A DNA stretch of 64,000 nt from Candidatus Aenigmatarchaeota archaeon (GCA_023134135.1 JAGLVB010000004.1:24233-88232); one strand, 5' to 3'. Counted from the stretch's first letter, positions 13,581 to 47,631 are shown. Notes: generated by a model from the letters alone, not told the origin. Made by a program: numbers and translations.

Positions 13581-14372
13581 TTAAATATTTAATTCTGTAG
13601 CTGCCAGTACATAAAGTTTACATAAATCATTTGCAAATTTATCTTCCAGTTTTTCGCAAGTTTTAGTATCTTTGGATATAGTGCCTATGCACCGGGCTCT
13701 TTCCATTTTAGATAAAATAGAATCGCATAAATCAAGGTTATTTTCCATAACAGCTCGTTGACTATAACATGCATCGGTTCCGCAATAACTGGAATCTTCT
13801 GACATTATTGCGTCACACAGGTCTTTTTCCTGAGGTTCTGAGATAATTTCTTCGCAATAGGAAGAGTTATTTTTAACAACAGCTAAACAGGTATATTTTG
13901 CGCTTTCATGTCCAATATCATCACAATTTTCTTCAGCATATAGTTTGTAATATTTGTAGGGTATATACAGGAAGCAGGATTCCAAAAAAGTTGGCGATTC
14001 TATATATTCTTCGCATATTGATGGATTTTTTTCTTTTAAAGCAACATTTGAGAAACAGATTGTTCTTTGAAAAGGGTCATTGATTTGATTGCATAATTCA
14101 ATATTGGCATTTTTCATTGTGGAGAAACGCCAACAAATTGATCTTAAATTACCCGCAAGGTCGCAATAAGTTGAATTGCCGGTGAAAAAAGAATAACATA
14201 TTATTTTTGTTTCAGGGTGGCTGAAATTATCGCACATTTCAATTTTAGTTATAGGTTCTAAATTATTTTGGTTTTTATTAGAATTCAAAGTTATCAAAAC
14301 AATTGCAATAATTATCAGAATAATTGAAACATATAAAATGTTTTTGTTCCTTTTTTTTATATCCTTTGACAT
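13581..14372 (-). CDS. Membrane-anchored cysteine-repeat protein (island unit A, gene 4)
   Basis: N-terminal TM helix, then tandem degenerate repeats of the form C-x2-I/L-x(6-9)-C-aromatic-x3-aliphatic-x(5-8)-C, e.g. LCDSILSKMERARCIGTISKDTKTCEKLEDKFANDLCKLYVLA. Paralog of 14375-15136. Confidence 0.55.
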   Translation of the reverse strand: MSKDIKKRNKNILYVSIILIIIAIVLITLNSNKNQNNLEPITKIEMCDNFSHPETKIICYSFFTGNSTYCDLAGNLRSICWRFSTMKNANIELCNQINDPFQRTICFSNVALKEKNPSICEEYIESPTFLESCFLYIPYKYYKLYAEENCDDIGHESAKYTCLAVVKNNSSYCEEIISEPQEKDLCDAIMSEDSSYCGTDACYSQRAVMENNLDLCDSILSKMERARCIGTISKDTKTCEKLEDKFANDLCKLYVLAATELNI

Positions 14373-14374
14373 AA

Positions 14375-15136
14375 TTATTCATAAAATAAATCTAAGTCTT
14401 TTCCCATAAAGAATATTTTGCAAAGGTCTTTTTCATCTTCAAGTTCATTGCAGTTTTCTATTTTATCTGACGCAAATGCCACGCATTTTGCTCTTAAAAA
14501 TTCTGTTGGTTCTTCAAGACAATAATTCCAGTCGCTGTTTTTTGAGACCAGAATTGCGCATAATGGATTAAGGAAACCCTGCTCATCTTTGCACATTCCA
14601 ATATTTTTTGAAAACAATGCTTTGCAGGTGGTTCTTTCATAATAATCTTCTATCTGGTCGCAATATCCTAAATCTTTGGTGACTTTTGCCAGACAGGTAT
14701 ATTTATTATAATCAATTTTTATCAGATTGCAGGATTCTATAGTAGAATAGAAAAAATAACAGGAATCTTCTTCACATAAACTTAAATCACTTTTTGATTT
14801 TGCAAGTTTTCTAAGACATATATTTTTAATGGAGTTGTCTTTTATTTCATTGCAGAATATTTCATTAACACCTATTTTAGATAAAATAGCTTTTGCGCAA
14901 CCGCTTTTATATTTTCCACCAAAATCATTGCAAATATTTAAATCTTTTGAAAGGGTTGCATAACAGATAGTTCTTAATTTGGGATATACAAATTCATCGC
15001 AAATATTTATTTCATCCGCAGGTTCTTCATGAATTTCAATGTTTTGCAAGGGCGAATTTAATAAAGAAAGTCCAATTATAATAGATAAGGTTATACATAT
15101 TATTGCAATTGCGAGGTATTTTTTATCCATAATCAT
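14375..15136 (-). CDS. Membrane-anchored cysteine-repeat protein (island unit A, gene 3)
   Basis: Same architecture and repeat as 13581-14372 (YCDQIEDYYERTTCKALFSKNIGMCKD, NCNELEDEKDLCKIFF). Its ATG overlaps the upstream stop (ATGA at 15133-15136). Confidence 0.55.
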   Translation of the reverse strand: MIMDKKYLAIAIICITLSIIIGLSLLNSPLQNIEIHEEPADEINICDEFVYPKLRTICYATLSKDLNICNDFGGKYKSGCAKAILSKIGVNEIFCNEIKDNSIKNICLRKLAKSKSDLSLCEEDSCYFFYSTIESCNLIKIDYNKYTCLAKVTKDLGYCDQIEDYYERTTCKALFSKNIGMCKDEQGFLNPLCAILVSKNSDWNYCLEEPTEFLRAKCVAFASDKIENCNELEDEKDLCKIFFMGKDLDLFYE

Positions 15137-16329
15137 GTTTTTACCGAAACAACACTCGTGTTGTAAGTAAATTCAATATTATACATTCCTTTTTGGGTAA
15201 TGTTTTCAAAATTAATTGGAAAGGTGCAATCCAGATTTTTGCAACTGTTCAACATACATAATTGATTGCCCTGATATAATATAGGATAAGTAAAATACAT
15301 ATCTCTTGTAATTATAAGTGTTTCGCTTGGATTTCTTTCAGCTTTTGCGCAGATATCTTCAATTAAACTTGAGATTGTTTCAAGTTCTCCTTTTACAGCA
15401 GTTATTTTTATTATTCCTTCCCTCATGGTGGTTTCATTGTATCTAATTGTAATAGGAAGCACAATCTGGATTTCTTCTTCTTTTGCATCATGCGGAGAAA
15501 ATGAAGATATTCCGCTAACAGGTAGATATGCAAACCCCCAGGATTTTTGTTTAATATCTGATGTAAAATTCACTCCATAGGGTTCTCGACTTGCAGTTAT
15601 AGTAAGACCGCACCATGCATGAATATGTCTTATAGTTATTTCAGTGCAATTTGTCGCCGGGTCAATATTATAACATTCCATCATCCATGGATGTGAATTG
15701 CAGGTCTTCCTTACGCAGCAGGCCATTTCAGAAGTGCCTTCATAAATTTTTTCGCATTCCTCTGATGATTTTATATATTGCGAACAATCATAAGGCGTAC
15801 ACACAACACTGCGACCTCCGCAGTTTAAGGTTCTTGGAAAACGTCCATCCAGTTCACCACCACCACAGCAACCCTCCAAATTACCATCACAATGAATATA
15901 TATTGTTGGTTGTCCATGGAAAGCTATGCTCCAGTTTGAATTCTCCGGGTCGCATTCCTTTTCTTTTATTTGCATTCCCTGGTAAGTCCGGAAATTCTTT
16001 TCAAATTGGATTATCTCAATATTATAATCAAAATCCATGGCTTTTGCGTATTTTGGTTCAAGACCCTGATAACTATTATTAAAATCCAGAATTTTATTGA
16101 TATCAAGATTTCCTTTTTGCGTTACATTGTTATATTCATAAGCCAGGCATTCCTTGGTATTTATAAGTTTCTGCAGAATTTCCAGAGAATCCATCCTAAG
16201 TTCAGAACTTTCTTTTTCTTCGATAGTTGTGACTTTTGACATCTGCGAGATAAGGATAATTGATGTGAATGCCAGAACAGATATAACTATTAAAATCGCT
16301 TTAATAAAAAAGTTCATTTGACCTCTCAT
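15133..16329 (-). CDS. Class III signal (pilin-like) cysteine-rich secreted protein (island unit A, gene 2)
   Basis: Start moved to the internal ATG at 16329 (MRGQMNFFIKAILIVISVLAF), one nt after the upstream gene's stop. The track's longer N-terminus overlaps that upstream gene. Cys-rich core: CDGNLEGCCGGGELDGRFPRTLNCGGRSVVCTPYDC. Confidence 0.55.
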   Translation of the reverse strand: MRGQMNFFIKAILIVISVLAFTSIILISQMSKVTTIEEKESSELRMDSLEILQKLINTKECLAYEYNNVTQKGNLDINKILDFNNSYQGLEPKYAKAMDFDYNIEIIQFEKNFRTYQGMQIKEKECDPENSNWSIAFHGQPTIYIHCDGNLEGCCGGGELDGRFPRTLNCGGRSVVCTPYDCSQYIKSSEECEKIYEGTSEMACCVRKTCNSHPWMMECYNIDPATNCTEITIRHIHAWCGLTITASREPYGVNFTSDIKQKSWGFAYLPVSGISSFSPHDAKEEEIQIVLPITIRYNETTMREGIIKITAVKGELETISSLIEDICAKAERNPSETLIITRDMYFTYPILYQGNQLCMLNSCKNLDCTFPINFENITQKGMYNIEFTYNTSVVSVKT

Positions 16330-16330
16330 A

Positions 16331-17536
16331 TTAACATCCGCACCCTGGGCAAGGGCATGTAGTGCAACAGCGGCAGGGATCTCTCCAGAAAGCAATAGCC
16401 CCAACCCTGAAAATCATAGGAACAGGTCCTTTATCTGAAGGGACATGGAAATAATTATCTGTGCAGACATATTGGTGCGATGTGGCAAATCTTGCTTCAT
16501 AATGACATAAACAATAAGACTGTGCATGCACAACAGGCAAAAGATTTAAATCAATATTACTAAGATATTCATTGATTTTATCATAATATCCCTGCAGGAT
16601 TACATTAGGCGCAGGGCAAATGGATGATGTTGGAGGAGGAGGAACGCATTCATGTTCGCAGGATGAACTGCAATCATTATCCCAGGGCAGGCAACCGCAA
16701 GGATATCCGCAAATAGGTCCGATTCCTTGAGTGCAACAAAGGTAAGGTTTTGTTCTAATACATTCCACTTCAGTTTCATTAAATCTTCTTTGCAAATCAT
16801 CCAAGGCAAGTTCACCGCATCGTTCTGAAGCGACTATACAATCACCTGTGCATTCTTCTTCCCCTGAACGAGCATCGCAGGCACAGCCTAATAAAGCGCA
16901 AACACAAGGGGAATAAACATCGTCTTCAGCCCATTCATGGAAAATTCTATGAAGGTACCAGTATCGATTTCTGGTTATAAATTCATCTATATTCATATCA
17001 TCATTAACAGTTGCTCCGCCGCCGGATACAGAAACTAAAGCTTCGGTAATATTTACCCAGAAATTTCCTTCATCATAATATTTAGGGTCATAAACTCCAA
17101 CTGGATCTAAAACTTCATCCGGGTCAACATCATATTCACAGGATGAAAAATTTTTCTTTATTATAGTGATAGGCGTGTCCAAAACAGAATAATTGCCAAG
17201 ATAAACATTAGCATAATATAAAGTGTATTTTTCAAGACAATCTATTGAATCTTCAACAGGAAAATTATTTGGTCCATTGCAAATCCACTCCTGCGCTCCT
17301 ATCTGTCCTCCAAGGCAGGCATGTTCTCTTAAACTCTGATGAGCAGAATAAATATTTGCCTGCTTTGAATATCCTTTAAGTCTTTCTATTTCATTTCTTA
17401 ATGTATCCACAGTATATCTTTCAGAGATACTTTCCTCGTATTTTGTCCCGTAAAATGCATTGTAAAAAAAGTAACTTAATAATACACTTCCAATCAATAA
17501 TATTAGAAATATAATAGGGAGTAGTTGCGCTTTCAT
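16331..17536 (-). CDS. Extremely cysteine-rich secreted/anchored protein (island unit A, gene 1)
   Basis: N-terminal hydrophobic helix MKAQLLPIIFLILLIGSVLL. By hand count, 31 Cys in 401 aa, clustered as CVCALLGCACD, CCTQGIGPICGYPCGCLPWDNDCSSSCEHEC and a C-terminal CRCCTTCPCPGCGC. Confidence 0.55.
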   Translation of the reverse strand: MKAQLLPIIFLILLIGSVLLSYFFYNAFYGTKYEESISERYTVDTLRNEIERLKGYSKQANIYSAHQSLREHACLGGQIGAQEWICNGPNNFPVEDSIDCLEKYTLYYANVYLGNYSVLDTPITIIKKNFSSCEYDVDPDEVLDPVGVYDPKYYDEGNFWVNITEALVSVSGGGATVNDDMNIDEFITRNRYWYLHRIFHEWAEDDVYSPCVCALLGCACDARSGEEECTGDCIVASERCGELALDDLQRRFNETEVECIRTKPYLCCTQGIGPICGYPCGCLPWDNDCSSSCEHECVPPPPTSSICPAPNVILQGYYDKINEYLSNIDLNLLPVVHAQSYCLCHYEARFATSHQYVCTDNYFHVPSDKGPVPMIFRVGAIAFWRDPCRCCTTCPCPGCGC

Positions 17537-17559
17537 AAATATAATATAGTTTAAATATT

Positions 17560-17991
17560 ATGGATATATCCAGCATCAGGATAAAAGAACGGGTGGCTGA
17601 GGAGTTTTATGATAAATTTACCCGCAGTTATCAACAAAATGATTTGCGAGAAGCATCAAAGAATTTGTGGGACTGCCTTAAACATTTGGTTTTGGGGTTG
17701 GGTTTTTGCAAGAATAAGGAATTAGGTGATAAGGATTTTATGGATTTTTTAAACGAATTTGAAACAGAGATTACGAAAGATGACATAAATACTATAAAAG
17801 CGATTCATATAAATTCCCTGAGAGGTGCGATGGATTCTGGAATGTTTGATATTTACAAAAGAAAAGTTGATATGTTGAGGAATAAATTAAAAAATATGAT
17901 TAAAGATTATCTAAGTTCCGGGAGTGAGTTGGATTCTGGAGAGGATATAATGGAAACTTCCAGTGATGAGAGTTCAGAAAATCACTCATAA
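17560..17991 (+). CDS. Hypothetical helical cytoplasmic protein with an acidic/serine-rich tail
   Basis: ORF divergent from island unit A. No signal peptide. Weak resemblance to archaeal PaREP1-like helical proteins (LREASKNLWDCLKHLV). Confidence 0.4.
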   Translation: MDISSIRIKERVAEEFYDKFTRSYQQNDLREASKNLWDCLKHLVLGLGFCKNKELGDKDFMDFLNEFETEITKDDINTIKAIHINSLRGAMDSGMFDIYKRKVDMLRNKLKNMIKDYLSSGSELDSGEDIMETSSDESSENHS

Positions 17992-18161
17992 AAAAGGAAA
18001 ACTGGAAGTAAATAAAGTATTTATAGTTTAAATACAATTATCATAATCATGTTTCAACAATTTGTAAGCAGGAACTAAATTTTTTAAAGTGCGATTATAA
18101 TAATTATGAATAAACAAAGCGTTATTTGGTGTTGCCCACTATAAATAAATACTTTTATACC

Positions 18162-18208
18162 TTCAATTACTAATTATGAAGGGCACAGTGGATGTTTGGA
18201 TATGGATT
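18162..18208 (+). promoter_or_regulatory. 47-bp block (-14 to +33 around the ATG) duplicated perfectly at 21966-22012
   Basis: ttcaattactaattatgaagggcacagtggatgtttggatatggatt is identical in both places. An upstream aatactttt(a/g)ta TATA-like box is also conserved. Confidence 0.5.
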
Positions 18209-19792
18209 CTCGGAGGAGTCCTCGCAGGTTTATTAATTCTTGCAATCGCAAATTCTTATCTTACGCAGACCACAAAAACAATAGCTGAACAAAGGTCTAT
18301 TGAGCAGCATGATGAATTGCGAACGCAGATAAATGAACTTTGCTGGAGTTCTTCGGAAAATAAAAAACAATATGCAATAGATTTAAATGAAAATGTGCTT
18401 GGTGTTTATTTGACAGAAGACAAATATGTTGAATATGATGAAACCCAGTTTATAGATTTTATTCTTGATGAAAATGTTTCTTCAGGCAATCTTTTATGCA
18501 TGAAGATAAGAGACAAAAGATTACTGTGCGAACAACTTGATTGCAATGCAAGGATGACTTTTTTAGGTTCAGTCCCAACAGAATCTTCATTATCCGCTTT
18601 GATAGATAATATTATAGGAAATCCCGGGTCTTTTGAATATAAATTAAGTTTTAGCAAGTTTGGCAAGGAGGTTTTGATAAGTGTTGTTGGAGGGAAAGAA
18701 GTATTGCCTGTTTGCAATCTTGATGGTTTCTGCAATAAGGATGAATGCAGGGATGATTGCGAAGATTGTTATGGTCCTAGTCCGGTTTGCATTGGAGATG
18801 ATTTTTGCAATAGAGATATTGGAGAGGATTGCTTAACTTCTTTAGATTGCATATGCAATGCGAGCGAAGGATATAATTGTTGCAAAGAAGACCCTGCTTC
18901 AGATGATTCAGGTTGCGTTGATGAAACCAGACAGAATTTATCAAAAGGAGAAGAATGTTTTTGCCAAAATGAATGCAATATAACAGCGAATCTTGTTTGC
19001 AGTCCTGTGGCTGTTACTTATATAGGACTTATGAAATCTGCTTGTTGCGAGCCTGGTTATGGTTGGAATGGGAGTGATTGCGTTATGTTGGATCCCTGCC
19101 TTACTTTTTCTTCTAAAGGTCCCGGTGTTGTTTTTGCAGGGGTAGTAACCACATTTAGTATACAAAAATACAGTTCTAGTTCCCAAACAATTTCAATGAT
19201 GATGTCAATAGATAATGTTGTTGCAATAGCCCTCGCTGAAGGAGTTAATAATCATCCTGAATGGGGTGTTACAACACCCGATTCTTTAAATGCAACACAG
19301 AGATTGCAGGCGATATTTGAATGGGAAACCGCTAATGTTGGTTATTTATGCGATCAAGCTGGTACAGCGTGTCCTCACAATTGTCCTGAATGCGCTGGAA
19401 ATATGGTCTGTTCCTGTTTGGCGGGTTTTAATTGTGCTGGCGGAGATATCTGGTTGTCAGGAGAAGATACAATTACATTAACTCCTTCTTGTTGCAATGC
19501 AGGACCTTATCAATACCACGGGGACTGCGATGATTATGCTCATTTATATATTAGCATGGCGAGAACTGCAGGGGTATCAGAAGATTGCGTTGCATGGAAA
19601 TGCGGACCGGGTCATGCATTTAATGCAGCAAAAATTAATGGAAGGTGGGAATATGTGGATGCCCAGGGAGGTCAGGGTTTATCCTGGAACCAGATGATGC
19701 AGAGCACAGGTTTTATCCGGGGTTGCAGCGGATTTGGAGCCCCTCATAGCGGGTATACAGATTATAATTATATGGATATATGCGGTACTTAA
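18176..19792 (+). CDS. Pilin-like N-terminal module + Cys-rich stalk + C-terminal transglutaminase-like cysteine-protease-fold domain (island unit B, gene 1)
   Basis: MKGTVDVWIWILGGVLAGLLIL leader. Stalk: CNLDGFCNKDECRDDCEDCYGPSPVCIGDDFCNRDIGEDCL. C-terminus HGDCDDYAHLYISMARTAGVSEDCVAW..GHAFNAAKINGRWEYVDAQ fits the Cys/His/Asp core of the transglutaminase-like superfamily. Confidence 0.6.
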   Translation: MKGTVDVWIWILGGVLAGLLILAIANSYLTQTTKTIAEQRSIEQHDELRTQINELCWSSSENKKQYAIDLNENVLGVYLTEDKYVEYDETQFIDFILDENVSSGNLLCMKIRDKRLLCEQLDCNARMTFLGSVPTESSLSALIDNIIGNPGSFEYKLSFSKFGKEVLISVVGGKEVLPVCNLDGFCNKDECRDDCEDCYGPSPVCIGDDFCNRDIGEDCLTSLDCICNASEGYNCCKEDPASDDSGCVDETRQNLSKGEECFCQNECNITANLVCSPVAVTYIGLMKSACCEPGYGWNGSDCVMLDPCLTFSSKGPGVVFAGVVTTFSIQKYSSSSQTISMMMSIDNVVAIALAEGVNNHPEWGVTTPDSLNATQRLQAIFEWETANVGYLCDQAGTACPHNCPECAGNMVCSCLAGFNCAGGDIWLSGEDTITLTPSCCNAGPYQYHGDCDDYAHLYISMARTAGVSEDCVAWKCGPGHAFNAAKINGRWEYVDAQGGQGLSWNQMMQSTGFIRGCSGFGAPHSGYTDYNYMDICGT

Positions 19793-19794
19793 TA

Positions 19795-21333
19795 ATGGAG
19801 GTTGAAAGATTGCGGGACTTTGGAATATTAATAATATTTTTATCAATGTTTTTTACAATAAATACTGTTTATGCCGGACTATATTATACCGGAGATATAT
19901 CTCTTGAGAATGAAAATGTTTTGATTAAAGTTGAATATGGAGATAATGATGCTATTTTAATTGCTAATTCCAGCTATACCCTGAAAAATAATGGAGAAGA
20001 TCAGGAAATTGAATATGGGTATTATGTATTTGGTCAATTTATTAATGGAGGTATTTTAACTTTAAGTGCGGGGGAGGAGAAGATAATATTTTTTAATACT
20101 TCAAAAGTTTTGCAGGATTCTTATACAATAAATATGGATTTTAATCTGATGTTGAGTGGAAAATATATTGGAACAAAAACACAGGAAGGCGAATTTATAA
20201 TTAAATATCCTTCAAAACCAACAATCATTTCAATGAACCCGCAACCAACTCATTCAACGGATTTGGAATTAATATGGAGTAAGACAGATTATATCCCGGT
20301 TTTTAATATTCTTGTTAGCTGGGTAAAAGAAGAGATTAATGTTGATTTAAAAAAAGAGATTATTCCTTCAACTCTTCTGAAGAATGATGTTTTTACAGTT
20401 AAATCAATTATTAAAAATAATGATAATGTGGGTTATAAATATATTATTACGGATATTTACTCAACTGATTTTTATGAACCTGTAGATAAAACATATTTTG
20501 AGGAATTGATACCAGAAAGTCCCATGGAACCAAGTTACTGGAAATTTGAAAGAGAACTTGAAATTGGTTCCAATGAAGAAAAAGTTTTTGAATATCAGTT
20601 GGAATTTTTAGGGGCTAAAGGAATAAGCGAAATGGAGATACCCCCTTTTAATTTCTTTATTTCCGATAAAAACTTTTATAAATATTCAAATAAGGTGGGT
20701 GTGCTTGTAAATGTCTGCAATTTTAACAATATATGTGAAATTGAACTGGATGAATATTATCTAAATTGCCCTCAAGACTGCGTTTCAGGTTCAGTAGATG
20801 GATATTGCGATGGTATTGCGGATGGGATATGCGATGAAGATTGCTTAGCGCAGTCTATTCCCGAGTTAGATTCTGATTGTTCTTCATGCGGGGATGGCAA
20901 ATGCGATTTAGGAGAAACACGGGAAAACTGTTGCGTTGATTGCGGTTGCATTGGTGGAATGAAATGCCAGGACAATAAATGCGTTAAAACAGAAATATGC
21001 GGTGATGGAACCTGTTCAATACATGAAACTTATGAAAAATGCAAAGAGGATTGCCCTTCAGGCTCAAAAGATAATTATTGCGATAAAGTGGAAGATAATA
21101 TCTGCGACCCTGATTGCGCCCGAACCAGAGATGTGGATTGCTTGTGCAATAAAGATGGTATTTGCGAATCCAACTTTGAGACAAATTCAAATTGTCCCGA
21201 AGACTGTGAGTCAGATAACACCATAATATATTTAATCCTCGGATCAATTGCCCTAATTTCAATTATAATTTACTTAAGAAACCGTTCCAAAAAAACAAAA
21301 TGGAAGGAAATCTATGAGGAAACTTCAAACTAA
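19795..21333 (+). CDS. Secreted, C-terminally membrane-anchored protein with CARDB/DUF11-like beta domains and CGDGxC Cys-rich modules (island unit B, gene 2)
   Basis: Signal MEVERLRDFGILIIFLSMFFTINTVYA. Modules CGDGKCDLGETRENCCVDCGC, CGDGTCSIHETYEKCKEDC and CNKDGICESNFETNSNCPEDC. C-terminal TM IIYLILGSIALISIIIYL plus a basic tail. An alternative start at 19780 overlaps the upstream stop. Confidence 0.6.
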   Translation: MEVERLRDFGILIIFLSMFFTINTVYAGLYYTGDISLENENVLIKVEYGDNDAILIANSSYTLKNNGEDQEIEYGYYVFGQFINGGILTLSAGEEKIIFFNTSKVLQDSYTINMDFNLMLSGKYIGTKTQEGEFIIKYPSKPTIISMNPQPTHSTDLELIWSKTDYIPVFNILVSWVKEEINVDLKKEIIPSTLLKNDVFTVKSIIKNNDNVGYKYIITDIYSTDFYEPVDKTYFEELIPESPMEPSYWKFERELEIGSNEEKVFEYQLEFLGAKGISEMEIPPFNFFISDKNFYKYSNKVGVLVNVCNFNNICEIELDEYYLNCPQDCVSGSVDGYCDGIADGICDEDCLAQSIPELDSDCSSCGDGKCDLGETRENCCVDCGCIGGMKCQDNKCVKTEICGDGTCSIHETYEKCKEDCPSGSKDNYCDKVEDNICDPDCARTRDVDCLCNKDGICESNFETNSNCPEDCESDNTIIYLILGSIALISIIIYLRNRSKKTKWKEIYEETSN

Positions 21334-22495: not shown

Positions 22496-22523
22496 ATTAA
22501 TATACATATATCCCAATTTATAT

Positions 22524-24362: not shown

Positions 24363-24363
24363 T

Positions 24364-25212: not shown

Positions 25213-25313
25213 AATTGACCTGATATTTTAATATTAATTGAGTTGATTATTTTTATCCAACATTAATAAATATTTTGTGAGTGTTCTTATATATAAGGTA
25301 AGCATAATATATT

Positions 25314-26276: not shown

Positions 26277-26315
26277 GCTGGTTGTCTTTAAATATGAAAA
26301 ATACAAATAAAGATA

Positions 26316-26696
26316 ATGGGAAAAGAAAATTCAGGGAATTATTTAGTTTATGTAATTTTAATGGTTGTCGCCATATTTTTAGTTTATTTTTTAATGCAAT
26401 TTAGCGTAAACCATTCAACTGAATCTTTGGTTTTATCAGAGCCGGAAAAAACAGTTATAAAATATAGTTGTGAAAAATCAGGAGATAGTAAAGTTACCTG
26501 CAAATGGTCAGGGTGTTATGGCGATTCTGTAGTTGTATTGCAAAAAGGAGATCTGATTTATTCGTGGATGTTGGATACTTCTTCAGGAAAGCATGATTTT
26601 GATATTTTAGATTCTGGTAATTATAGGGTTGTCTTTGTTTGCGGCAATCAAACAAGAATAATGGAGAGTATTTATATAGAAAATGAATTAACTTAA
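26316..26696 (+). CDS. Small TM-anchored hypothetical protein (island unit C, gene 5)
   Basis: ORF with N-terminal helix NYLVYVILMVVAIFLVYFLM. Its stop abuts the next start. Confidence 0.45.
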   Translation: MGKENSGNYLVYVILMVVAIFLVYFLMQFSVNHSTESLVLSEPEKTVIKYSCEKSGDSKVTCKWSGCYGDSVVVLQKGDLIYSWMLDTSSGKHDFDILDSGNYRVVFVCGNQTRIMESIYIENELT

Positions 26697-26698
26697 TT

Positions 26699-28714
26699 AT
26701 GAAGATTAAAATTGTTTCAATGAAGTTAATTTTGGTTTCTCTATTATTTCTAATTCTTACAACCCCAACTTTTGCAAACAGTATCAATTGTTCCCAGTGT
26801 TCTATAAACCAACAATGCACCTGCGAATTAAAGTTGGATGAAGGAACCTGCACAGATGGTCTATGGATAGTTTTAAAAAGCGAAGGAAATCCGTTGCAAA
26901 TTCAGGTAGTCGCAGATATCCCTCCAATAAATATAAGTTTCACCCCAACCGGAGAAGGAAAAATAAAGATAAATGGTTACTGTTTCAGCACCCCAATGCC
27001 TGTTATTTTAGAAAAGGAAATTAATATCAAAGCTTCATTCCTCCAGTGTCCAACAACCTGTAAAATTGGAGACTCTTGTTCTTGTTCAGTAAACAATTGC
27101 ACTGATGGTCTATATGTAATAATTAACAAAGTAAACAATCCTGTTGATTATAATATTTATCCTTATTTAAGCACTATTGCAACTGACCCTTATATAAATA
27201 TTTTCAAAGCAAAAGAAAATGGGACCGTTGGAATTGTTGCAGCCTGCTTCAGCCCGTTGCCAACAAAATCCACAACTGCTGATATAATTATTGGCGGAGG
27301 TCAGGTTCAACAATGCACAACACATCAGGATTGTGATGATTCAAATCCCTGCACTTCAGATATTTGTGATTCTAATGGACAATGTTTAAATACACCGATA
27401 ACTGCATGTATCAACAGTGATGGATGTTGCCCTTCAGGTTGCACTTCCACGAATGATAATGATTGCAGTCCAAATCCTACTGAGATTTGCAATAATGGAA
27501 TAGATGATGATGGAGATGGATGTATTGATACAGTTGATTCAGATTGTGGTGGAACAGAAACTAATTGTACTGATGGAATTGATAATGATTGTGATGGACA
27601 AATAGATGGTACTGATTCTGATTGCAGTCCAACACCAACCTGTTCAATAAATTCAGACTGTGATGATTCAAATCCCTGCACTTCAGATATTTGTGATTCT
27701 AATGGACAATGTTTAAATACACCGATAACTGCATGTATCAACAGTGATGGATGTTGCCCTTCAGGTTGCACTTCATCAAATGATAATGATTGCCCGACGC
27801 AATGTAAATTTCAGTTAACTTCAGATTCAACTCTGCAGGACAGACCTTCTTTGATATATGATGGAGGTAATTATTATCTTGCTTATCAATCTTGGGAGAC
27901 TGGAGATTCATTCAATGGAGATATATTTATAAAGAAATTTGATTCTGGTTGGAATGAACTTAAAAAAGTTAGGGTTACTTCAGAGAGTTCTTATCAGGAT
28001 TCCCCTTCTTTAATTATTGTCAATAATACTATATATATTGCTTATGTTTCAAATGAGACAGGACTTTGGGATATTTTTGTTAAACAATATAACTTAGATT
28101 TTAATGAATTAAAAAAGAAAATATTGACAACAAATTTATCTAATCAGGATTTACCTTCTTTGATATATGATGGAGGTAATTATTATCTTGCTTATCAATC
28201 TTGGGAGACTGGAGATTCATTCAATGGAGATATATTTATAAAGAAATTTGATTCTGGTTGGAATGAACTTAAAAAAGTTAGGGTTACTTCAGAGAGTTCT
28301 TATCAAGATAGACCTTCATTGAGATTTATTGATGGGTTTTATTATATAGTTTATTATTCAAGTGAGGTAGGAAATTATGATATTTTTATAAAAAGACTGG
28401 GTTTAAATTTAAATTTAGATGCTTCTTTTAAAAAACAGATTACTTTAGATTCATCCAGTCAATCATTTCCTTCCATTTATTTTAATAAAAATTATGTGAT
28501 AACTTATGCATCTAATGAAAGGGGCACTTTAGGTATTTTTATGAAAACTTATGATATTAATTGGAATTTTATTAATAAATCCTTAGTAATAGATGATAAT
28601 TCTTTTCACGAGAGAAGATCCAATTCAATATTTAATGCACCTAATAGTTGGGTGGTTTATACAGCCAATAAATTAGGCAATTCTGACTGGAATTTGTTTG
28701 CTATAAAGATATAA
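26699..28714 (+). CDS. Secreted mosaic protein: beta-sandwich-like N-terminus, duplicated Cys-rich modules, CxDGxDxDCDG metal-binding-like motifs and a C-terminal PD40/TolB-like beta-propeller repeat region (island unit C, gene 6)
   Basis: Signal MKLILVSLLFLILTTPTFA. Modules CDDSNPCTSDICDSNGQCLNTPITACINSDGCCPSGC x2, CNNGIDDDGDGCIDTVDSDC and CTDGIDNDCDGQIDGTDSDC. About six ~50-aa repeats of the type QD.PSL....YY.AY.S.E.G..DIF.K. Confidence 0.6.
   Translation: MKIKIVSMKLILVSLLFLILTTPTFANSINCSQCSINQQCTCELKLDEGTCTDGLWIVLKSEGNPLQIQVVADIPPINISFTPTGEGKIKINGYCFSTPMPVILEKEINIKASFLQCPTTCKIGDSCSCSVNNCTDGLYVIINKVNNPVDYNIYPYLSTIATDPYINIFKAKENGTVGIVAACFSPLPTKSTTADIIIGGGQVQQCTTHQDCDDSNPCTSDICDSNGQCLNTPITACINSDGCCPSGCTSTNDNDCSPNPTEICNNGIDDDGDGCIDTVDSDCGGTETNCTDGIDNDCDGQIDGTDSDCSPTPTCSINSDCDDSNPCTSDICDSNGQCLNTPITACINSDGCCPSGCTSSNDNDCPTQCKFQLTSDSTLQDRPSLIYDGGNYYLAYQSWETGDSFNGDIFIKKFDSGWNELKKVRVTSESSYQDSPSLIIVNNTIYIAYVSNETGLWDIFVKQYNLDFNELKKKILTTNLSNQDLPSLIYDGGNYYLAYQSWETGDSFNGDIFIKKFDSGWNELKKVRVTSESSYQDRPSLRFIDGFYYIVYYSSEVGNYDIFIKRLGLNLNLDASFKKQITLDSSSQSFPSIYFNKNYVITYASNERGTLGIFMKTYDINWNFINKSLVIDDNSFHERRSNSIFNAPNSWVVYTANKLGNSDWNLFAIKI
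27332..27447 (+). repeat. 116-bp perfect intragenic direct repeat, copy 1 (copy 2 at 27659-27774)
   Basis: Identical sequence tgtgatgattcaaatccctgcacttcag...ccttcaggttgcacttc with an in-frame offset of 327 bp. Confidence 0.85.
27659..27774 (+). repeat. 116-bp perfect intragenic direct repeat, copy 2
   Basis: Identical to 27332-27447. Confidence 0.85.
27844..27996 (+). repeat. 153-bp perfect intragenic direct repeat, copy 1 (copy 2 at 28153-28305)
   Basis: accttctttgatatatgatggaggtaattattatcttgc...cagagagttcttatca is identical with an in-frame offset of 309 bp (two propeller-like repeat units). Confidence 0.85.
28153..28305 (+). repeat. 153-bp perfect intragenic direct repeat, copy 2
   Basis: Identical to 27844-27996. 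Confidence 0.85.
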
Positions 28715-28762: not shown

Positions 28763-28921
28763 TCAAGGCAATGACAATGCTCTGGTTAGAATCAAACCCA
28801 ATAAAATAGACGCCATTAAAAAAACCGCATAAGGATTAATATTCATAAATTGAATTAAACCAATACTTATTAGAATAGTAATTATAGATATTGCCAATAA
28901 TATCTTATTTTTTTTATTCAT
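28763..28921 (-). CDS. Possible 52-aa two-helix membrane peptide
   Basis: Below the track cutoff: MNKKNKILLAISIITILISIGLIQFMNINPYAVFLMASILLGLILTRALSLP. Lies downstream and co-oriented with 29007-29492. Confidence 0.3.
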   Translation of the reverse strand: MNKKNKILLAISIITILISIGLIQFMNINPYAVFLMASILLGLILTRALSLP

Positions 28922-29006
28922 AATTATATTGTTTTGATAAATATACGGATAGTTTATGCAATCATAGAGGGTAATCTATTCTAATAAAGATAAGGGAATA
29001 TCAAAT

Positions 29007-29492
29007 CTATCCAAGATACAAAATCACCAACCCAATTCTTTGTTCAGGCACAGGTATTAGTTGTTTATAAACGTATAAGGGTTCTCCTGAAAGAAATCCA
29101 TATTCAACAGTCCTGTTTGGGGTAATCACTTCAAGTTTCCACTTACCGGGCAGATAATTTTCAAATAAAGAAGGAATTATTTCTGTATTATTAAGAGTCC
29201 CCACCCCAATTCCATAGAAAGTTTTGTATTGTTCTGTGGGATCGTTTTTGATATGTTTTGAAAGAACAGCATCTATAACTGTTTCTATATAAGGTTTCTC
29301 CACAAAATCAACTTTGTTATTGAATAAAGAAAAAATTGCAAGATTTCCTTCTTCTCTTAGGAACCTGAGACCAACAGTTTTTTCAGTTTCAGTCTCTTTC
29401 AATAAGCTTTGTGTGGTCAGAAATGCAAGTAATGTAAAAATGGCAAGAACAATCACAACCAGATACATAAACTCTTCAGAGATACCTTTCAT
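29007..29492 (-). CDS. Class III signal (pilin-like) protein (island unit D, gene 2)
   Basis: MKGISEEFMYLVVIVLAIFTLLAFL leader/helix followed by a beta-rich mature part. Confidence 0.45.
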   Translation of the reverse strand: MKGISEEFMYLVVIVLAIFTLLAFLTTQSLLKETETEKTVGLRFLREEGNLAIFSLFNNKVDFVEKPYIETVIDAVLSKHIKNDPTEQYKTFYGIGVGTLNNTEIIPSLFENYLPGKWKLEVITPNRTVEYGFLSGEPLYVYKQLIPVPEQRIGLVILYLG

Positions 29493-29522
29493 AATATAGT
29501 TTAAATAAATAGAAAATAAAAA

Positions 29523-30131
29523 TTAATTTTGGTAATAGTCGCAAAGAGGTACAGGTACATCGTGCGTGCCATTCCATTCTAATAGTGTTTCATTGAAATA
29601 TCTTGTGAACCAGTTTGATTCCGGAGGCAATGCATTCATATTCAGTCCGCATTCTATATCTTTTGTTGGCACTAAACCCAACTCATTTGTTACATAGTTT
29701 GTGGCAAGAGTAAAGTTTTCATATTTTGTATATCCTGCTTGGCATAACTGATTTGCGCAACCTTTCATTGGAACATCACCAAATCTTGCGCATGGCGCAA
29801 TAAGGAAACAGTATATTCTATCTTCGCATACATCCCATTGCACTTTTTTACCTATTGTTATCAATTCATTTTCTTCCCCGTCCCCGTCCCAGTCAACTCT
29901 GGAAACTGGTATATCTTTTCCAAAATAATCAGTGCAGTAGCTGAGACTTGAACTTTCTGTGCAGTATCCTTCGCATTTCTCTATGAATTCTCTCATTTCT
30001 AATTCTCCCGCAGCGCTGGGCATCCTGTCAGGACTTATATAATACAGCAATAGACTGATTATAACGCCTGCAACTACCAGCAGAATTACGAGTCCAATAA
30101 CCATTTCTAAACTCATTTGACCCTTTTTCAT
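29523..30131 (-). CDS. Class III signal (type IV pilin-like) Cys-rich protein (island unit D, gene 1)
   Basis: Textbook-looking archaeal prepilin N-terminus MKKGQMSLEMVIGLVILLVVAGVIISL. Paralog of 25314-26276. Confidence 0.6.
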   Translation of the reverse strand: MKKGQMSLEMVIGLVILLVVAGVIISLLLYYISPDRMPSAAGELEMREFIEKCEGYCTESSSLSYCTDYFGKDIPVSRVDWDGDGEENELITIGKKVQWDVCEDRIYCFLIAPCARFGDVPMKGCANQLCQAGYTKYENFTLATNYVTNELGLVPTKDIECGLNMNALPPESNWFTRYFNETLLEWNGTHDVPVPLCDYYQN

Positions 30132-30183
30132 AATATAACTCTTATTTATAAATAATATGGTACTTTGTAAAAACTAGTTAATT

Positions 30184-32262
30184 ATGGTTGAACCAAATCC
30201 ATTGCCAAAATCTGAATATTATAAAAGGTTTGAAAAAGTTGAAATTGAATTTTTTACTTTAGGTAAATATGAATCTTTTTGCAAGTTTTCCCGCAATTAT
30301 ATAAAATTAAGAGCTCCAAAGTTTTTAAGAAAAATATGGGATGATGCGATATTCATGTCTGGTCTTAAAGTTAATTCTGATGAGGTTTTTTCTGCTTTGA
30401 TTTTCTCAATAATTGTTTCATTTTTGTTTTTGTTTCCTTTTGCCGTCTTTCTGGAATCTCCCACTAACCTGCTTGTTGTAATGGGGATACCTTTATTTAT
30501 TGCTTATAATGTTTATTCTTATCCTAAATTTAATTCAGATGTTGTCCGTATAAGGGCTGGAAATGAAATGGTTGATATAATTTTGTATATGGTTATTTAT
30601 CTTTCTTTAAATCCTGTTTTTGAGAAGGCTGTTGAGTTTGCTGCAATGAATTGTTATGGACCTATAGGAGAAGATTACAAGAAGATTATCTGGGATGTGG
30701 ATATGGGTAAATATATCAGTATCAGGGAAGCGATTGGAGTGCATACACGGAAGTGGACGATATGGAATGAAGAATTTGTCACTTCTTTAATTACTCTGCA
30801 GATGGTTGGAATGACTTCTTCAGAGAAAAGAAAGCATGAGTTGCTGGAAGAAGCATTAGACAGGACATTAAAGAATACCTATACAAAGATGGAGGAATAT
30901 GCAATTGCTTTGAAAATGCCTTCCATGATGTTGATGTCTTTTGGGATTATATTGCCTTTGATGGGTTTGATAATGTTTCCTATTATAAGCGTTTTTTTGA
31001 CAGATTCAGTAAATCCAATATATATCATAGTTGGATATACAATAGTGTTGCCTTTTTTGCTGTGGTGGTATCTTTACAGATTAGTTTCGAGGCGTCCAAG
31101 CGCATTCTCGCATTCTTCAAAAACAGGAGGCATAAAACCAGCGAAGTTTATAGAAATAAGAAAATATAACCTAAAACTGCCAATAAAAATGACTGCTATA
31201 TTAATTGGAACTATTTTAATTATTCCAGGTCTTATGTATATTGGTCAGGTGATATTTGATCAACATTTTATATATGCAAATTATGAAGGGGATTATGCTG
31301 ATGATAAATGGAAAGAATACTGTCTGGCAAGATATGGGTCAGAATATATTTTATGGGATCTTTTAAGCGCTATGTTTATTATCTGGGGTATTGGAAGCGC
31401 GATAATTGTTTATACTTATTTTACAAGTAAGGATCGCTATCAACTTGAGGAATATATAAAAAAGACTGAGGCAAATATGATTGATGGTTTGTTTGAGTTG
31501 CAAAATCCTCTGGCTCAGAATATTCCAATAGAAGTTGCGTTGCCAAAAGTTCTTAATAAATATGACCGGATGAACCGGAAAAAAACGCCGGTTTATGAGT
31601 TTTTTAGCAAGATATTTAACAGCATTTCCCGCCTTTCAATGACTTTCAGGAGTTCTTTGTTTGATGAGAAGTATGGTTTAATGAAAGATTATCCTTCATC
31701 AACGATAAAAAATATAATGGGTATTATTGCTGATTCTCTGACGAAAGGACCTTTAATTGTTGCGGGCGCAATCAAAAATATTATTAGAAGCATGAAGAAA
31801 ACAGAGGAGATAGAGGCGAGGATAAGATATTTGCTTGAGGATGTTGTTACCAATCTAAAAACACAGACCACCTTTATCGCTCCTTTGATGGGGGGTATTT
31901 CTGCGGCCACAGGGGTTTTAATTGTTCAACTATTGCAGAGTATTGCTTTTGCTCTTTCAAAAGTGGAAAAGATGTATTCCAGCGGGGCAGGGAGTACGGT
32001 ATTTCAAGGTCTGGATTTAATAAAACTGGAAGAAGTGATGCCTCCAACAGTTCTTGAATTGACTATAGGAATTTATCTTATAGAAGTTGTGGTTATAATG
32101 TGTATATTTATTGTGGGAATTGACCGTGGGTTTGATGAAGTTTGCAGGGATTATACAATATCAAGAAATCTTACAATTGCTCTTATATTCTTTTCAGTAA
32201 TAATGATAATTATGGTTATGATATTCCAGCCAATTGTTTTGCAGATTTCGGCTTCAGTATGA
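30184..32262 (+). CDS. FlaJ/TadC/PilC-type (T2SS-F family) polytopic platform protein of a type IV filament system
   Basis: 692-aa protein with two membrane-embedded repeats. The cytoplasmic helical segment NEMVDIILYMVIYLSLNPVFEKAVEFAAMNCYGPIGEDYKKIIWDVDMGKYISIREAIG fits the T2SS-F pattern (G.sl..A......gP...e......i..G.s...A). Confidence 0.55.
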   Translation: MVEPNPLPKSEYYKRFEKVEIEFFTLGKYESFCKFSRNYIKLRAPKFLRKIWDDAIFMSGLKVNSDEVFSALIFSIIVSFLFLFPFAVFLESPTNLLVVMGIPLFIAYNVYSYPKFNSDVVRIRAGNEMVDIILYMVIYLSLNPVFEKAVEFAAMNCYGPIGEDYKKIIWDVDMGKYISIREAIGVHTRKWTIWNEEFVTSLITLQMVGMTSSEKRKHELLEEALDRTLKNTYTKMEEYAIALKMPSMMLMSFGIILPLMGLIMFPIISVFLTDSVNPIYIIVGYTIVLPFLLWWYLYRLVSRRPSAFSHSSKTGGIKPAKFIEIRKYNLKLPIKMTAILIGTILIIPGLMYIGQVIFDQHFIYANYEGDYADDKWKEYCLARYGSEYILWDLLSAMFIIWGIGSAIIVYTYFTSKDRYQLEEYIKKTEANMIDGLFELQNPLAQNIPIEVALPKVLNKYDRMNRKKTPVYEFFSKIFNSISRLSMTFRSSLFDEKYGLMKDYPSSTIKNIMGIIADSLTKGPLIVAGAIKNIIRSMKKTEEIEARIRYLLEDVVTNLKTQTTFIAPLMGGISAATGVLIVQLLQSIAFALSKVEKMYSSGAGSTVFQGLDLIKLEEVMPPTVLELTIGIYLIEVVVIMCIFIVGIDRGFDEVCRDYTISRNLTIALIFFSVIMIIMVMIFQPIVLQISASV

Positions 32263-32654
32263 AAGGAAACGAATATTCAGTGCAAACAATAATGTTTTTG
32301 GTTGCGAGTGTTTTTGCTGTGCTGGCGCTTATAACACTGGCAACTTCTTTTATTCCAGTGAATGATGGAAAGGAGTTTGAACTCAATGGCGATAAAGATG
32401 ATGTTATTCTGGATTTAAAGAATTATATCTATGATTGCGCTGAACAAAACAAAGGAAGTCATGACACTGTTCTTTGTTTTAAAATTTTTGCGAATTTTAC
32501 AGGCACAATAACCAAAACTGAAATGGTGCAGCGTCTTGACCCTCTCAGGATCGAATCAGGTGATTTGGAGATGGATGATTTAACAGGACCTGTTTATATA
32601 ATAATGAGTTGCGCCTTAGATAAAATAATTATAGAAAATAGATATTATGGGTAA
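32259..32654 (+). CDS. Class III signal (pilin-like) protein (island unit E, gene 2)
   Basis: Internal ATG overlapping the platform-gene stop (ATGA at 32259-32262) gives MKGNEYSVQTIMFLVASVFAVLALITL. The track's longer N-terminus overlaps the platform gene. Confidence 0.5.
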   Translation: MKGNEYSVQTIMFLVASVFAVLALITLATSFIPVNDGKEFELNGDKDDVILDLKNYIYDCAEQNKGSHDTVLCFKIFANFTGTITKTEMVQRLDPLRIESGDLEMDDLTGPVYIIMSCALDKIIIENRYYG

Positions 32655-33189
32655 GGGAATTGGCATTAATGTTGTTGTTGCTATGGTAGTTGCTCTTACA
32701 GGCGTATTATTATTTATGGGTCTTATTACAGGAACTCTGCAGGAGAGTCTTACAATGCTTTATTGCGGTTCTTATATAAGGATAGCCGGTATGATGCCTT
32801 CTTCGGAGAATCCTTCAATTCCTGATGTTTGCGTTTATGGAAGACCTTTAGAAACATTTAGGGTAGATGAGAGCGATAATAAGAAAGTATCCAGAATTAT
32901 ATTGTCTTACATAATCTCCTGTTGGGATAAAGTGGAAAATTTGCGTTTGGAAAAAGATTATGCTTGTTATGAATTAGCGCTTACTGAAACTGTGGCTAAT
33001 GTTGATGAAGGAAATGTGAGTCATATTCTGGTGAAAGAAGACCATTGCAGTTCTATAGAGAACTCTGACTATGGGTGCGGCGCAAAAGATCAAATCGTCT
33101 GGTCTGTGGATGGAGGTGTTATAAATACTCAAAAAGTATTATTAATATATTATGACTATGCGAATGATTGTATTATGGTGAAAGGATGA
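32647..33189 (+). CDS. Class III signal (pilin-like) Cys-containing protein (island unit E, gene 3)
   Basis: MGKGIGINVVVAMVVALTGVLLFMGLI. 8-nt overlap with the upstream gene. Confidence 0.5.
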   Translation: MGKGIGINVVVAMVVALTGVLLFMGLITGTLQESLTMLYCGSYIRIAGMMPSSENPSIPDVCVYGRPLETFRVDESDNKKVSRIILSYIISCWDKVENLRLEKDYACYELALTETVANVDEGNVSHILVKEDHCSSIENSDYGCGAKDQIVWSVDGGVINTQKVLLIYYDYANDCIMVKG

Positions 33190-33590
33190 AGAAGGGAGAT
33201 TTGGCATTGGACACAATAGTTAGTTGGATTATATTATTGGTTGTAGCCGGAGTTGTGATAGGGCTTATTTTTGGTTTTTCTGATCAAATTAAAGTAATAT
33301 TAAATCTTGAAAGTGAAGAAAAATCTTATGATACTGAATATATGACAAGCGCTTCTTTTTCAGAATCTCAAGTGGGAACTTACATAGAAATCTGCTGGTC
33401 AAAAACCGGAGAAAGATTTACAAAGGATTTCATATGTTATACTTTAGAGGGGAATATTTCTGCTGTAAATCCTGTTACTATTGCAGGCGCTTACGACGGT
33501 TATGTGGTGGAATCCAATTTTGATAATACAAAAGGAATATTGATAATAAGGTTTGAGGACATTGGAAACAAGATAATTTTGACAAATTAA
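33186..33590 (+). CDS. Class III signal (type IV pilin-like) protein (island unit E, gene 4)
   Basis: An ATGA overlap at 33186-33189 gives MKKGDLALDTIVSWIILLVVAGVVIGL, nearly the same helix as the 29523 and 25314 products. Confidence 0.55.
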   Translation: MKKGDLALDTIVSWIILLVVAGVVIGLIFGFSDQIKVILNLESEEKSYDTEYMTSASFSESQVGTYIEICWSKTGERFTKDFICYTLEGNISAVNPVTIAGAYDGYVVESNFDNTKGILIIRFEDIGNKIILTN

Positions 33591-47630: not shown

Positions 47631-47631
47631 A

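Follow-up and report, generated by a model that had tools for sequence, protein, structure and literature searches.

The 64,000-nucleotide stretch of DNA analysed here (the window; Candidatus Aenigmatarchaeota archaeon, GCA_023134135.1 JAGLVB010000004.1:24233-88232) contains, at positions 13581–33590, an island encoding about 20 secreted or membrane proteins, which probably supplies the pilins and the platform of an archaeal type IV filament (TFF) related to the Epd pili (system 1), with its ATPase and prepilin peptidase encoded elsewhere. One product of the island, a polytopic protein of 692 amino acids (aa), is homologous to the platform proteins of such filaments; genes around it encode proteins with N-termini of class III-like layout that are conserved among relatives; the same genes stand beside a gene for a T2SSE-type ATPase in related lineages; and the genes are under purifying selection. 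Because a motor ATPase and a signal peptidase would have to come from other parts of the genome, we regard the system as an unusual variant of a known machine, not as a new kind.

The window encodes archaeal markers (RadA, AglB/STT3, archaeal PheRS and PCMT), its GC content is about 33% throughout, and proteins related to those it encodes carry the label Candidatus Aenigmatarchaeota, which is a DPANN lineage. We read it together with 9 kb of upstream and 10 kb of downstream flank (248-kb metagenomic scaffold ERZ23498525 scaffold_10; metagenome-assembled genome (MAG) GCA_030631635.1), and compared it with 86 related loci, labelled by L-numbers (L001 etc.), and with individual homologues, labelled by P-numbers (e.g., P0056). 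The island lies between an ABC transporter/Bro-N cassette and acs, where a preliminary description of the window had placed it, and all open reading frames (ORFs) listed in that description were found at the coordinates it gave. Genes are referred to below by their lower coordinate.

The platform gene (30184–32262, plus strand), which has no adjacent ATPase gene, encodes a diverged T2SS-F (FlaJ/TadC/PilC-type) protein. Its preliminary assignment to this family is upheld by the matches of its homologues to T2SSF, by its internal duplication and by the adjacency of ATPase genes in 26 related loci. Pfam T2SSF (PF00482) was matched by 13 of 30 platform homologues, with a best E-value of 6.4e-8. 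Alignment of the N-terminal half to the C-terminal half with hhalign, based on 84 sequences, gave an E-value of 1.3e-4 over 198 columns, and the protein therefore has the two-repeat architecture; with a first alignment of 30 sequences, the same comparison was not significant (E 0.31). The gene for the most distant homologue, P0056, has its start inside the final part of a T2SSE ATPase gene (Pfam E 2e-21). The family comprises 56 close homologues and, in the GTDB species representatives, 127 relatives, mostly from Aenigmatarchaeota and also from Nanohaloarchaeota, Woesearchaeota, Undinarchaeota, Parvarchaeota and Iainarchaeum. Against two close relatives, the ratio of nonsynonymous to synonymous substitution rates (dN/dS) of the platform gene is 0.05–0.09, indicating strong purifying selection, and the gene is therefore not a decaying remnant; across the platform and pilin-like genes together the ratio is 0.05–0.22.

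The gene set is syntenic across Aenigmatarchaeota. For example, L019, with a platform 46% identical to that of the window, is almost collinear with the whole island and has a second platform paralogue at its end. A T2SSE ATPase gene lies within about 1–3.6 kb of the platform gene, usually upstream, in 26 of the 86 related loci. In L028, L043, L063, L050 and L070, an ATPase gene followed by a second platform gene is transcribed divergently from the first platform gene, and the latter is followed by a homologue of 32647 (three of the five loci) and a pilin gene of the KGQMSLE type (four of the five); in other sister loci the order is first platform, 32647 homologue, ATPase, second platform. The platforms with this ATPase-adjacent arrangement are 29–36% identical to that of the window, and the ATPase of the sister loci is about 750 aa long with an N-terminal CxxC-rich domain.

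Class III-like N-termini were assessed with a relaxed test (a leader of at most 16 residues ending in [KR][GA], then an uncharged hydrophobic 18-mer) and a strict criterion (the FlaFind hexamer motif at the expected cleavage site, which is marked below by a slash). The relaxed test was passed by 8 of the 21 island ORFs and by 4 of the 50 elsewhere in the window (Fisher p = 0.004). Three further island ORFs fit by homology: in 21980, the sequence MKG stands at an internal Met that is the true start by orthology; 25314 reads MA/NMSLE where its L012 orthologue reads MNKGQMSLE; and 22524 reads MG/IDNY where its L024 orthologue reads MKGSTVSEY. Together these amount to about eleven, in line with the at least eleven class III-like starts counted in the preliminary description, and we put at nine to eleven the proteins in which a hydrophobic helix comes after a short basic leader with [KR][GA] at its end. 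In the 86 related loci, 249 of 1084 ORFs pass the relaxed test, most commonly with a leader of three residues (M-K/R-G/A), and among orthologues the length of the leader varies while the [KR][GA] junction and the residues that follow it are kept. Beside the platform gene, class III-like starts are about three- to five-fold enriched, both in the window and in the 86 loci. Outside the island, two small ORFs on the minus strand begin in a similar way, 1923–2225 (MRG/YFFSLEVLIAVV, 100 aa) and 45383–45619 (MKG/FMKFFLYLL, 78 aa), and judging from these N-termini they may be stand-alone pilin-like genes.

The likely major filament subunit is a Cys-rich protein of 202 aa (29523–30131, minus strand), which begins MKKG/QMSLE, carries the FlaFind motif there, and has a mainly helical head. 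The leaders of its orthologues are mostly 2–8 residues long (a few are longer or mis-called) and end in [KR][GA], so that the junction of the family reads [KR][GA]/Q-[MA]-S-L-E, and ten Cys are invariant. Across 35 sequences of the family, to which 25314 also belongs, S, L and E of the Q-M-S-L-E stretch never vary; Glu is found at position +5 throughout and Gln usually at +1, and a +1 Gln is seen in the families of 15133 and 16331 as well. An AlphaFold2 (AF2) model built from the 35 sequences has a mean confidence score (pLDDT) of 88.5 and comprises an N-terminal helix (residues 8–32), a Pro-rich kink and a second helix packed on a compact head. The family was found in about 33 related loci and has only 365 representatives among 1.84 billion cluster representatives; it is therefore small and lineage-restricted, and it has no Pfam or NCBIfam coverage. 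The island encodes a 320-aa paralogue (25314–26276, plus strand; 48% identity over 179 aa), which has one more domain, Cys-rich/beta, at its C-terminus and whose leader is degenerate; no further in-frame start was found upstream.

Other small pilin-like proteins are encoded next to the platform gene and the major-pilin candidate. Three genes show translational coupling to the platform gene. The first, which overlaps it by 4 nt, encodes a 131-aa minor-pilin-like protein (32259–32654, plus strand; MKG/NEYSV) that passes the relaxed test; its orthologues lie directly 3' of the platform gene in 14 loci, keep MKG in most cases, and show a dN/dS of 0.18–0.20. The next gene (32647–33189, plus strand; 180 aa, MGKG/IGINV), also minor-pilin-like, is the most conserved partner of the platform, with a homologue about 2–2.5 kb past the platform start in 49 related loci; K3 and G4 are nearly invariant and four Cys invariant in its family (alignment A4), and no PDB match was found by sequence or profile search. 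The third (33186–33590, plus strand; 134 aa, MKKG/DLALD) carries the FlaFind motif, has an N-terminus related to that of 29523, and occurs in 23 loci. On the minus strand, 29007–29492 encodes a Cys-free, minor-pilin-like protein of 161 aa (MKG/ISEEF) that passes the relaxed test and has a dN/dS of 0.05–0.08; its orthologues (17 loci) retain M-K/R-G and an acidic residue at +3/+4. The three platform-coupled genes (32259–33590) and 29007 likely encode priming or minor pilins. Apart from the families of 29523 and 32647, the pilin-like families each occur in 14–24 loci.

The island also encodes large proteins that, from their sequences, are best described as modular and pilin-like. The 538-aa product of 18176–19792 (plus strand) combines a pilin-like N-domain of about 175 aa (MKG/TVDVWIW), a Cys-rich linker and a transglutaminase-like C-domain. 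The N-domain occurs alone as a gene of 167–196 aa in 22–24 loci, and in the island itself as a 171-aa paralogue with the same N-terminus, MKG/TVDVWIW (21980–22495, plus strand; 59% identity over 161 aa). The match of the C-domain to Pfam Transglut_core (PF01841; E 5e-4) reached 20.7 bits and missed the cutoff of 23; its sequence can be read to contain a Cys/His/Asp pattern (GDC...GHAF...YVDA), and no homologue of the domain was found in other related loci and no match in the PDB (phmmer). The 612-aa product of 22524–24362 (plus strand) consists of a hydrophobic N-terminal helix (MG/IDNYILMIG), a Cys-rich linker in common with 18176, and a C25-like domain, which matched Pfam Peptidase_C25 (PF01364; gingipain-type, clan CD) with an E-value of 2e-9 and 37.6 bits (cutoff 23); phmmer returned no PDB match for this protein. 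It is 42% identical to its L003 orthologue over 506 aa, although the platforms of the two loci are only 35% identical, and its dN/dS is 0.08. The His of LAHG/LMHG and the Cys of a hydrophobic strand (MSC/MPC) are kept between these two orthologues, and we read the LxHG His and the strand Cys as the putative catalytic residues. The two cysteine-peptidase-like domains proposed in the preliminary description are supported, and both are carried by proteins with pilin-like N-termini, the C25 domain scoring above its cutoff and the transglutaminase-like domain below it.

A different design is seen in 15133–16329 (minus strand), a 398-aa pilin-like scaffold (MRG/QMNFF) with an inserted Cys-rich module. 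Segments 1–118 and 250–398 of this family are conserved in 16 loci, with +1 Gln kept in most orthologues, and the insert is swappable: Cys-rich in the window, VWA_2 in L001, L007 and L024, and missing from orthologues of 248–255 aa. The adjoining gene 16331–17536 (minus strand) encodes 401 aa, 31 of them Cys, begins in class III-like fashion with MKA/QLLPI (MKGQLIPF or MKAQLIPF in orthologues), and occurs in 14 loci, usually beside the 15133 family. Further Cys-rich proteins of the island are N-anchored, secreted or C-terminally anchored. Two paralogues of 263 and 253 aa (13581–15136, minus strand; 27% mutual identity) are N-anchored, have 18–19 Cys and no family match, and adjoin the platform gene or the 15133 family in L018, L019, L022 and L023. 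The 517-aa product of 19780–21333 (plus strand; 11 loci) has an N-terminal signal/anchor, CGDGxC-type modules and a C-terminal transmembrane (TM) anchor, as in S-layer-like proteins, and its Cys modules are common to 24364–25212 (plus strand), a 282-aa membrane-anchored protein with repeated CG[DN]xxC...CPxDC modules and 36 Cys that matched nothing in Pfam. A 671-aa protein with a Sec-type N-terminus, MKIKIVSMKLILVSLLFLILTTPTFANS (26699–28714, plus strand; 11 loci), has Cys-rich modules, CxDGxDxDCDG motifs and beta-propeller-like C-terminal repeats, the last in keeping with a sub-threshold match to Pfam GH43 (30.6 bits, cutoff 32.2). It contains two near-identical internal repeat pairs, a Cys-rich module of about 50 aa and a propeller-blade-like unit of about 50 aa beginning at SLIYDGGNYYLAYQSWETG, which suggests recent internal duplication. 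The extreme Cys-richness remarked on earlier is borne out by 18, 19, 19, 31, 39, 28, 34, 36, 22 and 39 Cys in ten proteins.

The preliminary description recognised no precedent for this gene combination among characterised archaeal filament loci, and that claim does not hold. In sister loci of Aenigmatarchaeota and Nanohaloarchaeota, these platform and pilin genes recur together with a neighbouring T2SSE ATPase gene and another platform gene; the pilin signature, peptidase links, Cys-rich parts and split loci have been described (PMC3875500, PMC4858521); and islands of unrecognisable, "dark-matter" pilins were already predicted for DPANN archaea (Makarova, Wolf & Koonin 2019, PMC6393860, Fig. 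2A). The closest known system is Epd/system 1 of Methanococcus maripaludis, also reported in Methanobacteriales, Thermococcales and DPANN; its archaeal TFF clade (clade 1, Epd-like) has been reported in DPANN (bioRxiv 10.64898/2026.04.22.720090), and two platform genes with one ATPase are the hallmark of clade 1 pili in methanogens and DPANN (10.64898/2026.04.22.720090, PMC4858521). Like Epd, the island has a T2SS-F platform and many minor pilin-like genes, and two platforms flanking one T2SSE ATPase are found in its sister loci (L028, L043, L050, L063, L070, L041 and L048). The M. maripaludis pilins processed by EppA have a signal peptide ending in Gly and conserved +1 Gln and +5 Glu (PMC3875500), as has the main pilin here; and archaeal type IV pili are associated with surface peptidases belonging to the transglutaminase family (clade 1), with vWA proteins and with Cys-rich components (PMC4858521), a peptidase of that kind being linked to the Epd locus as well. 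However, the window has one platform, and no ATPase or EppA-type peptidase was found within 83 kb; the pilin candidate here has 202 aa and a helical head predicted to hold five disulfides, whereas the Epd pilin is about 70 aa long and headless; the peptidase domains are fused to pilin-like N-termini here and are separate proteins there; and the leaders here are mostly just M-K-G.

The predicted DPANN islands resemble the present one in that recognisable pilus parts occur amid unannotatable proteins with signal peptides that were taken as diverse pilins, and differ in that their recognition depends on both FlaI and TadC being there, whereas the ATPase is off-locus across the subclade studied here; a pilin with a Cys-rich head, C25 or transglutaminase fusions and a scaffold with swappable inserts are not described in the parts of that paper available to us (PMC6393860). 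In the Thermoproteales pili (clades 4E/4G; PMC4858521), almost all components have conserved Cys and predicted disulfides, large secreted adhesin-like and C-anchored S-layer-like proteins are encoded, and the pilin loci lack ATPase and TadC; these pili have no detectable sequence relationship to ours, and in them platform and ATPase keep together, whereas in the present island the platform has remained beside the pilins and the ATPase alone is off-locus. More generally, pilin sets and ATPase/TadC modules are often found in separate loci (PMC4858521). The VWA_2 insert of the 15133 family and a weak match to TadE/G-like pseudopilins recall bacterial systems. In those systems, modular pilins such as PilB and PilC of Streptococcus sanguinis, and TadG with its vWA domain, have a pilin N-module fused to a functional domain. 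The resemblance does not extend to significant sequence or fold similarity, and the modules here are C25- or transglutaminase-like peptidases and Cys-rich domains in archaeal, predicted disulfide-rich proteins.

Several observations weigh against the filament reading. No filament has been observed. We found no T2SSE ATPase, second platform or A24-type prepilin peptidase gene in the 64-kb window or in the flanks; scans for the peptidase in the window, by the six-frame pattern GxGD[hydrophobic][KR] and by TM count, returned nothing, and the same search of the 86 related loci returned only one doubtful candidate, in L057. Of the findings on which the preliminary description had made the pilus reading depend, T2SS-F homology was established, the standard class III predictors mostly failed, and neither ATPase nor peptidase turned up in the window and its roughly 19 kb of flanking sequence. 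Moreover, wherever the platform is at least 42% identical to that of the window (about 18 loci), no ATPase gene lies within 10 kb; taken with its absence from the window and flanks, this makes the separation of the ATPase from the platform-plus-pilin module look like a derived, stable trait of the subclade. The platform of the window taken alone matched Pfam T2SSF with an E-value of only 0.0076 (16.7 bits, cutoff 25.2), and its AF2 model, all-helical with a pLDDT of 79, gave no significant Foldseek match in the PDB, PilC (3jc8_Ca) ranking ninth with an E-value of 2.2, in a search that is of limited use for a long helical membrane protein.

Similar points arise for the pilins. The FlaFind motif stands at the expected cleavage site in only two of about eleven N-termini (29523 and 33186), a third match, in 15133 (KAILIV, residue 10), falling within the hydrophobic helix and not at MRG/Q. 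No class III or pilin model was matched when N-terminal 52-mers were searched against Pfam and full-length island proteins against NCBIfam, the sole pilin-type match being the sub-threshold one to TadE/G-like (Pfam PF13400, E 0.11). The proposal of class III signals is thus supported by layout and conservation and mostly not by the standard predictors. Some orthologues start MPE... or ME..., with no basic leader and the hydrophobic helix at once (L039, L057, L036, L045, L047, L049 and L037 for 21980–22495; L016 and L002 for the N-domain of 22524); these could be plain membrane anchors, or they may be leaderless pilin-like proteins or have mis-called starts. The mostly helical head of the main pilin matches no solved pilin or other PDB entry (Foldseek; profile search), which agrees with the earlier remark that the mature parts are unlike known pilins.

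The absent ATPase and peptidase, the failure of the standard class III models, the orthologues with no basic leader, and the lack of an ATPase within 10 kb throughout the subclade would all suit a reading in which no filament is built, the N-termini being ordinary uncleaved signal anchors and the T2SS-F-like protein having been repurposed after loss of its ATPase partner. We consider this improbable, because leaders of variable length with conserved [KR][GA], +1 and +5 residues are unexpected for simple anchors, class III-like starts are enriched beside the platform gene, and the platform is under strong purifying selection; furthermore, sister lineages that share the pilin genes have a T2SSE ATPase adjoining the orthologous platform, and T2SSE ATPases are encoded in Aenigmatarchaeota MAGs. 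For example, L008 and L009 hold a separate canonical pair of ATPase and 600-aa platform genes. A stand-alone T2SSE ATPase exists in L091 (4077–6029 and 7723–8499; uncultured-archaeon MAG GCA_964457955.1, recovered in the search for ATPases), with small ORFs and a MinD/ParA-like ATPase nearby and no platform gene found within 6 kb. Two other ATPases, P0085 and P0174, were rejected as candidates for this genome since they come from other MAGs, and an 8-TM protein (46605–47630) was rejected as a prepilin peptidase since it has no GxGD.

The same machinery evidence would serve equally for a bindosome- or pseudopilus-like surface display, in which the platform and an ATPase build a short structure that holds peptidases and Cys-rich binding modules, in the manner of the sugar-binding proteins of Sulfolobus. 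Many of the class III-like proteins are indeed large (398–612 aa), and their globular or enzymatic domains would not easily fit side by side in a filament, and in Sulfolobales class III signals do occur on non-pilin proteins and the bindosome is served by type IV pilus-type machinery (PMC4858521). However, the small, highly conserved pilin family with Epd-like +1 Gln and +5 Glu is of the abundant type and always syntenic, the three small platform-coupled genes resemble a minor-pilin set, and no resemblance to substrate-binding proteins was found among the island proteins with Pfam and NCBIfam; surface display of this sort is therefore rather unlikely, though the most credible of the alternatives. 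An archaellum locus for motility, or its remnant, could be suspected only in that the T2SS-F family of the platform includes FlaJ. No archaellin, FlaX or FlaF/G/H/C/D/E-type family was found among the island proteins (Pfam, NCBIfam), the +1 Gln/+5 Glu signature belongs to Epd pilins and not to archaellins, and the gene content is of a Cys-rich adhesin-like and peptidase-like sort, so that this explanation is effectively refuted.

If the region does encode an Epd-related filament, about ten of its proteins would enter the membrane by an N-terminal hydrophobic helix behind a very short basic leader (typically M-K/R-G/A), and a prepilin (class III) peptidase encoded elsewhere would take off the leader. 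The 692-aa platform, powered by a T2SSE (FlaI/PilB-type) ATPase also encoded elsewhere, would then pull the helices from the membrane and stack them into a filament. The large pilin-like proteins, with disulfides to stabilise them, are probably modular pilins of low abundance or tip/adhesin components; their loads would be a C25-type peptidase in one case, a transglutaminase-like domain in another and Cys-rich inserts (vWA in relatives) in others, while the Sec-type and C-terminally anchored Cys-rich proteins would be accessory surface proteins. Such a filament may be used for attachment to a host or a surface.

DPANN archaea are thought to live attached to hosts; how they attach is largely obscure, and pili, whose pilins are missed by annotation, are a standing candidate. 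A role in host contact would fit current thinking on DPANN pilins (preprint 10.1101/2025.08.05.668663). It is conceivable, though we think it a long shot, that the structure is an "enzymatic pilus", a disulfide-stabilised fibre on which modular pilins display an active peptidase of the C25 type, a second, transglutaminase-like one and exchangeable binding modules, either Cys-rich or vWA. If so, the modules would sit at the tip or along a fibre whose pilin head fold is unseen in solved structures, the aenigmatarchaeote would seize a host cell and locally digest its S-layer or envelope, and the ATPase acting in trans on the platform and pilins would be one that also works for a second, canonical pilus locus.

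Systems of this kind are already known, and their presence in DPANN was predicted (10.64898/2026.04.22.720090 and, in Fig. 2A, PMC6393860); associated transglutaminase-family peptidases, vWA, Cys-rich and S-layer-like anchored proteins and split loci are known as well (PMC4858521). What appears to be new is the clade-wide arrangement of a platform with no ATPase, a disulfide-rich pilin head with no structural match, C25 and transglutaminase-like peptidase domains on pilin-like N-termini, and the insert-swapping scaffold of the 15133 family. The locus thereby gives a concrete, conserved parts list for Aenigmatarchaeota, consisting of a platform, a likely major pilin with an unmatched five-disulfide head, a minor-pilin set, and pilin-like proteins with peptidase or adhesion modules. 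Since the platform is split from the ATPase across the clade, such loci would escape locus-based detection tools that need both genes together. The parts also supply testable targets, namely cleavage after Gly, the composition of the filament, and peptidase activity on host envelopes.

The genes of the island form the units 17536–13581 (minus strand), 18176–21333 (plus), 21980–28714 (plus), 30131–28763 (minus) and 30184–33590 (plus). Their junctions had been described as ATGA overlaps or gaps of 1–3 nt, which is true of many and not of others: 4-nt ATGA-type overlaps occur at 15133/15136, 32259/32262 and 33186/33189, and gaps of 1–2 nt at 14372/14375, 16329/16331, 24362/24364 and 26696/26699, and in addition there are overlaps of 8 nt (32647/32654) and 13 nt (19780/19792) and looser gaps of 28–101 nt (22495/22524, 25212/25314, 26276/26316, 29492/29523 and 28921/29007). 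A split gene or frameshift between 21980–22495 and 22524–24362 was rejected, as the two are separate genes in relatives too. A bacterial promoter and terminator scan of the region was uninformative, the organism being an archaeon. Two small genes of the island have few relatives: 26316–26696 (plus strand), for an N-anchored protein of 126 aa, is found in only 3 loci, and 28763–28921 (minus strand), a tentative ORF call for a two-helix membrane protein of 52 aa, has tblastn matches in 4 close loci only. Two further ORFs had not been listed before. One, between divergent units, encodes an acidic cytoplasmic protein of 143 aa (17560–17991, plus strand), for which no TM segment, family match or match in related loci was found; the other is a truncated IS200-type transposase fragment (21423–21683, plus strand; Pfam Y1_Tnp E 5.8e-13, profile positions 2–64 of 121) that is not part of the system.

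A mobile island was rejected as a reading of the region, given the uniform GC content, the lack of a tRNA gene and the differing genomic contexts in relatives, and neither the Bro-N genes nor the fragment of IS200 seems to have more than a chance connection with the pilus locus. A full-length IS200-like TnpA and a Zn-ribbon/transposase-like pair are encoded about 20 kb off (41414–41845 and 40495–41311, minus strand). Bro-N domain proteins are scattered on the plus strand (3255–4118, 12539–13399 and 54098–54922), and a paralogous unannotated pair of about 250–280 aa (2321–3160 and 4177–4938, plus strand) adjoins one of them. Two tandem KaiC-like (PF06745) ATPases of 235 aa, members of a group (KaiC/FlaH-like) proposed to regulate archaeal type IV pili, are encoded 5–6.6 kb upstream of window position 1 (L089:2454–3977), about 20 kb from the cluster. 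Within the window, a HerA/FtsK/TrwB-like ATPase with three C-terminal TM segments (60148–61674, minus strand), which is not T2SSE-type, adjoins ScpB, and a restriction-modification pair at 56256–58557 comprises an MvaI/BcnI-family endonuclease and an N4/N6 DNA methylase. At 46605–51222 (minus strand), a secreted or anchored surface protein of 1196 aa with an NPCBM_assoc match is followed by the 8-TM protein mentioned above, which has weak DUF3810/TGL (transglutaminase-like) matches; from their sequences, the two look like another surface-protein pair, unrelated to the pilus region.

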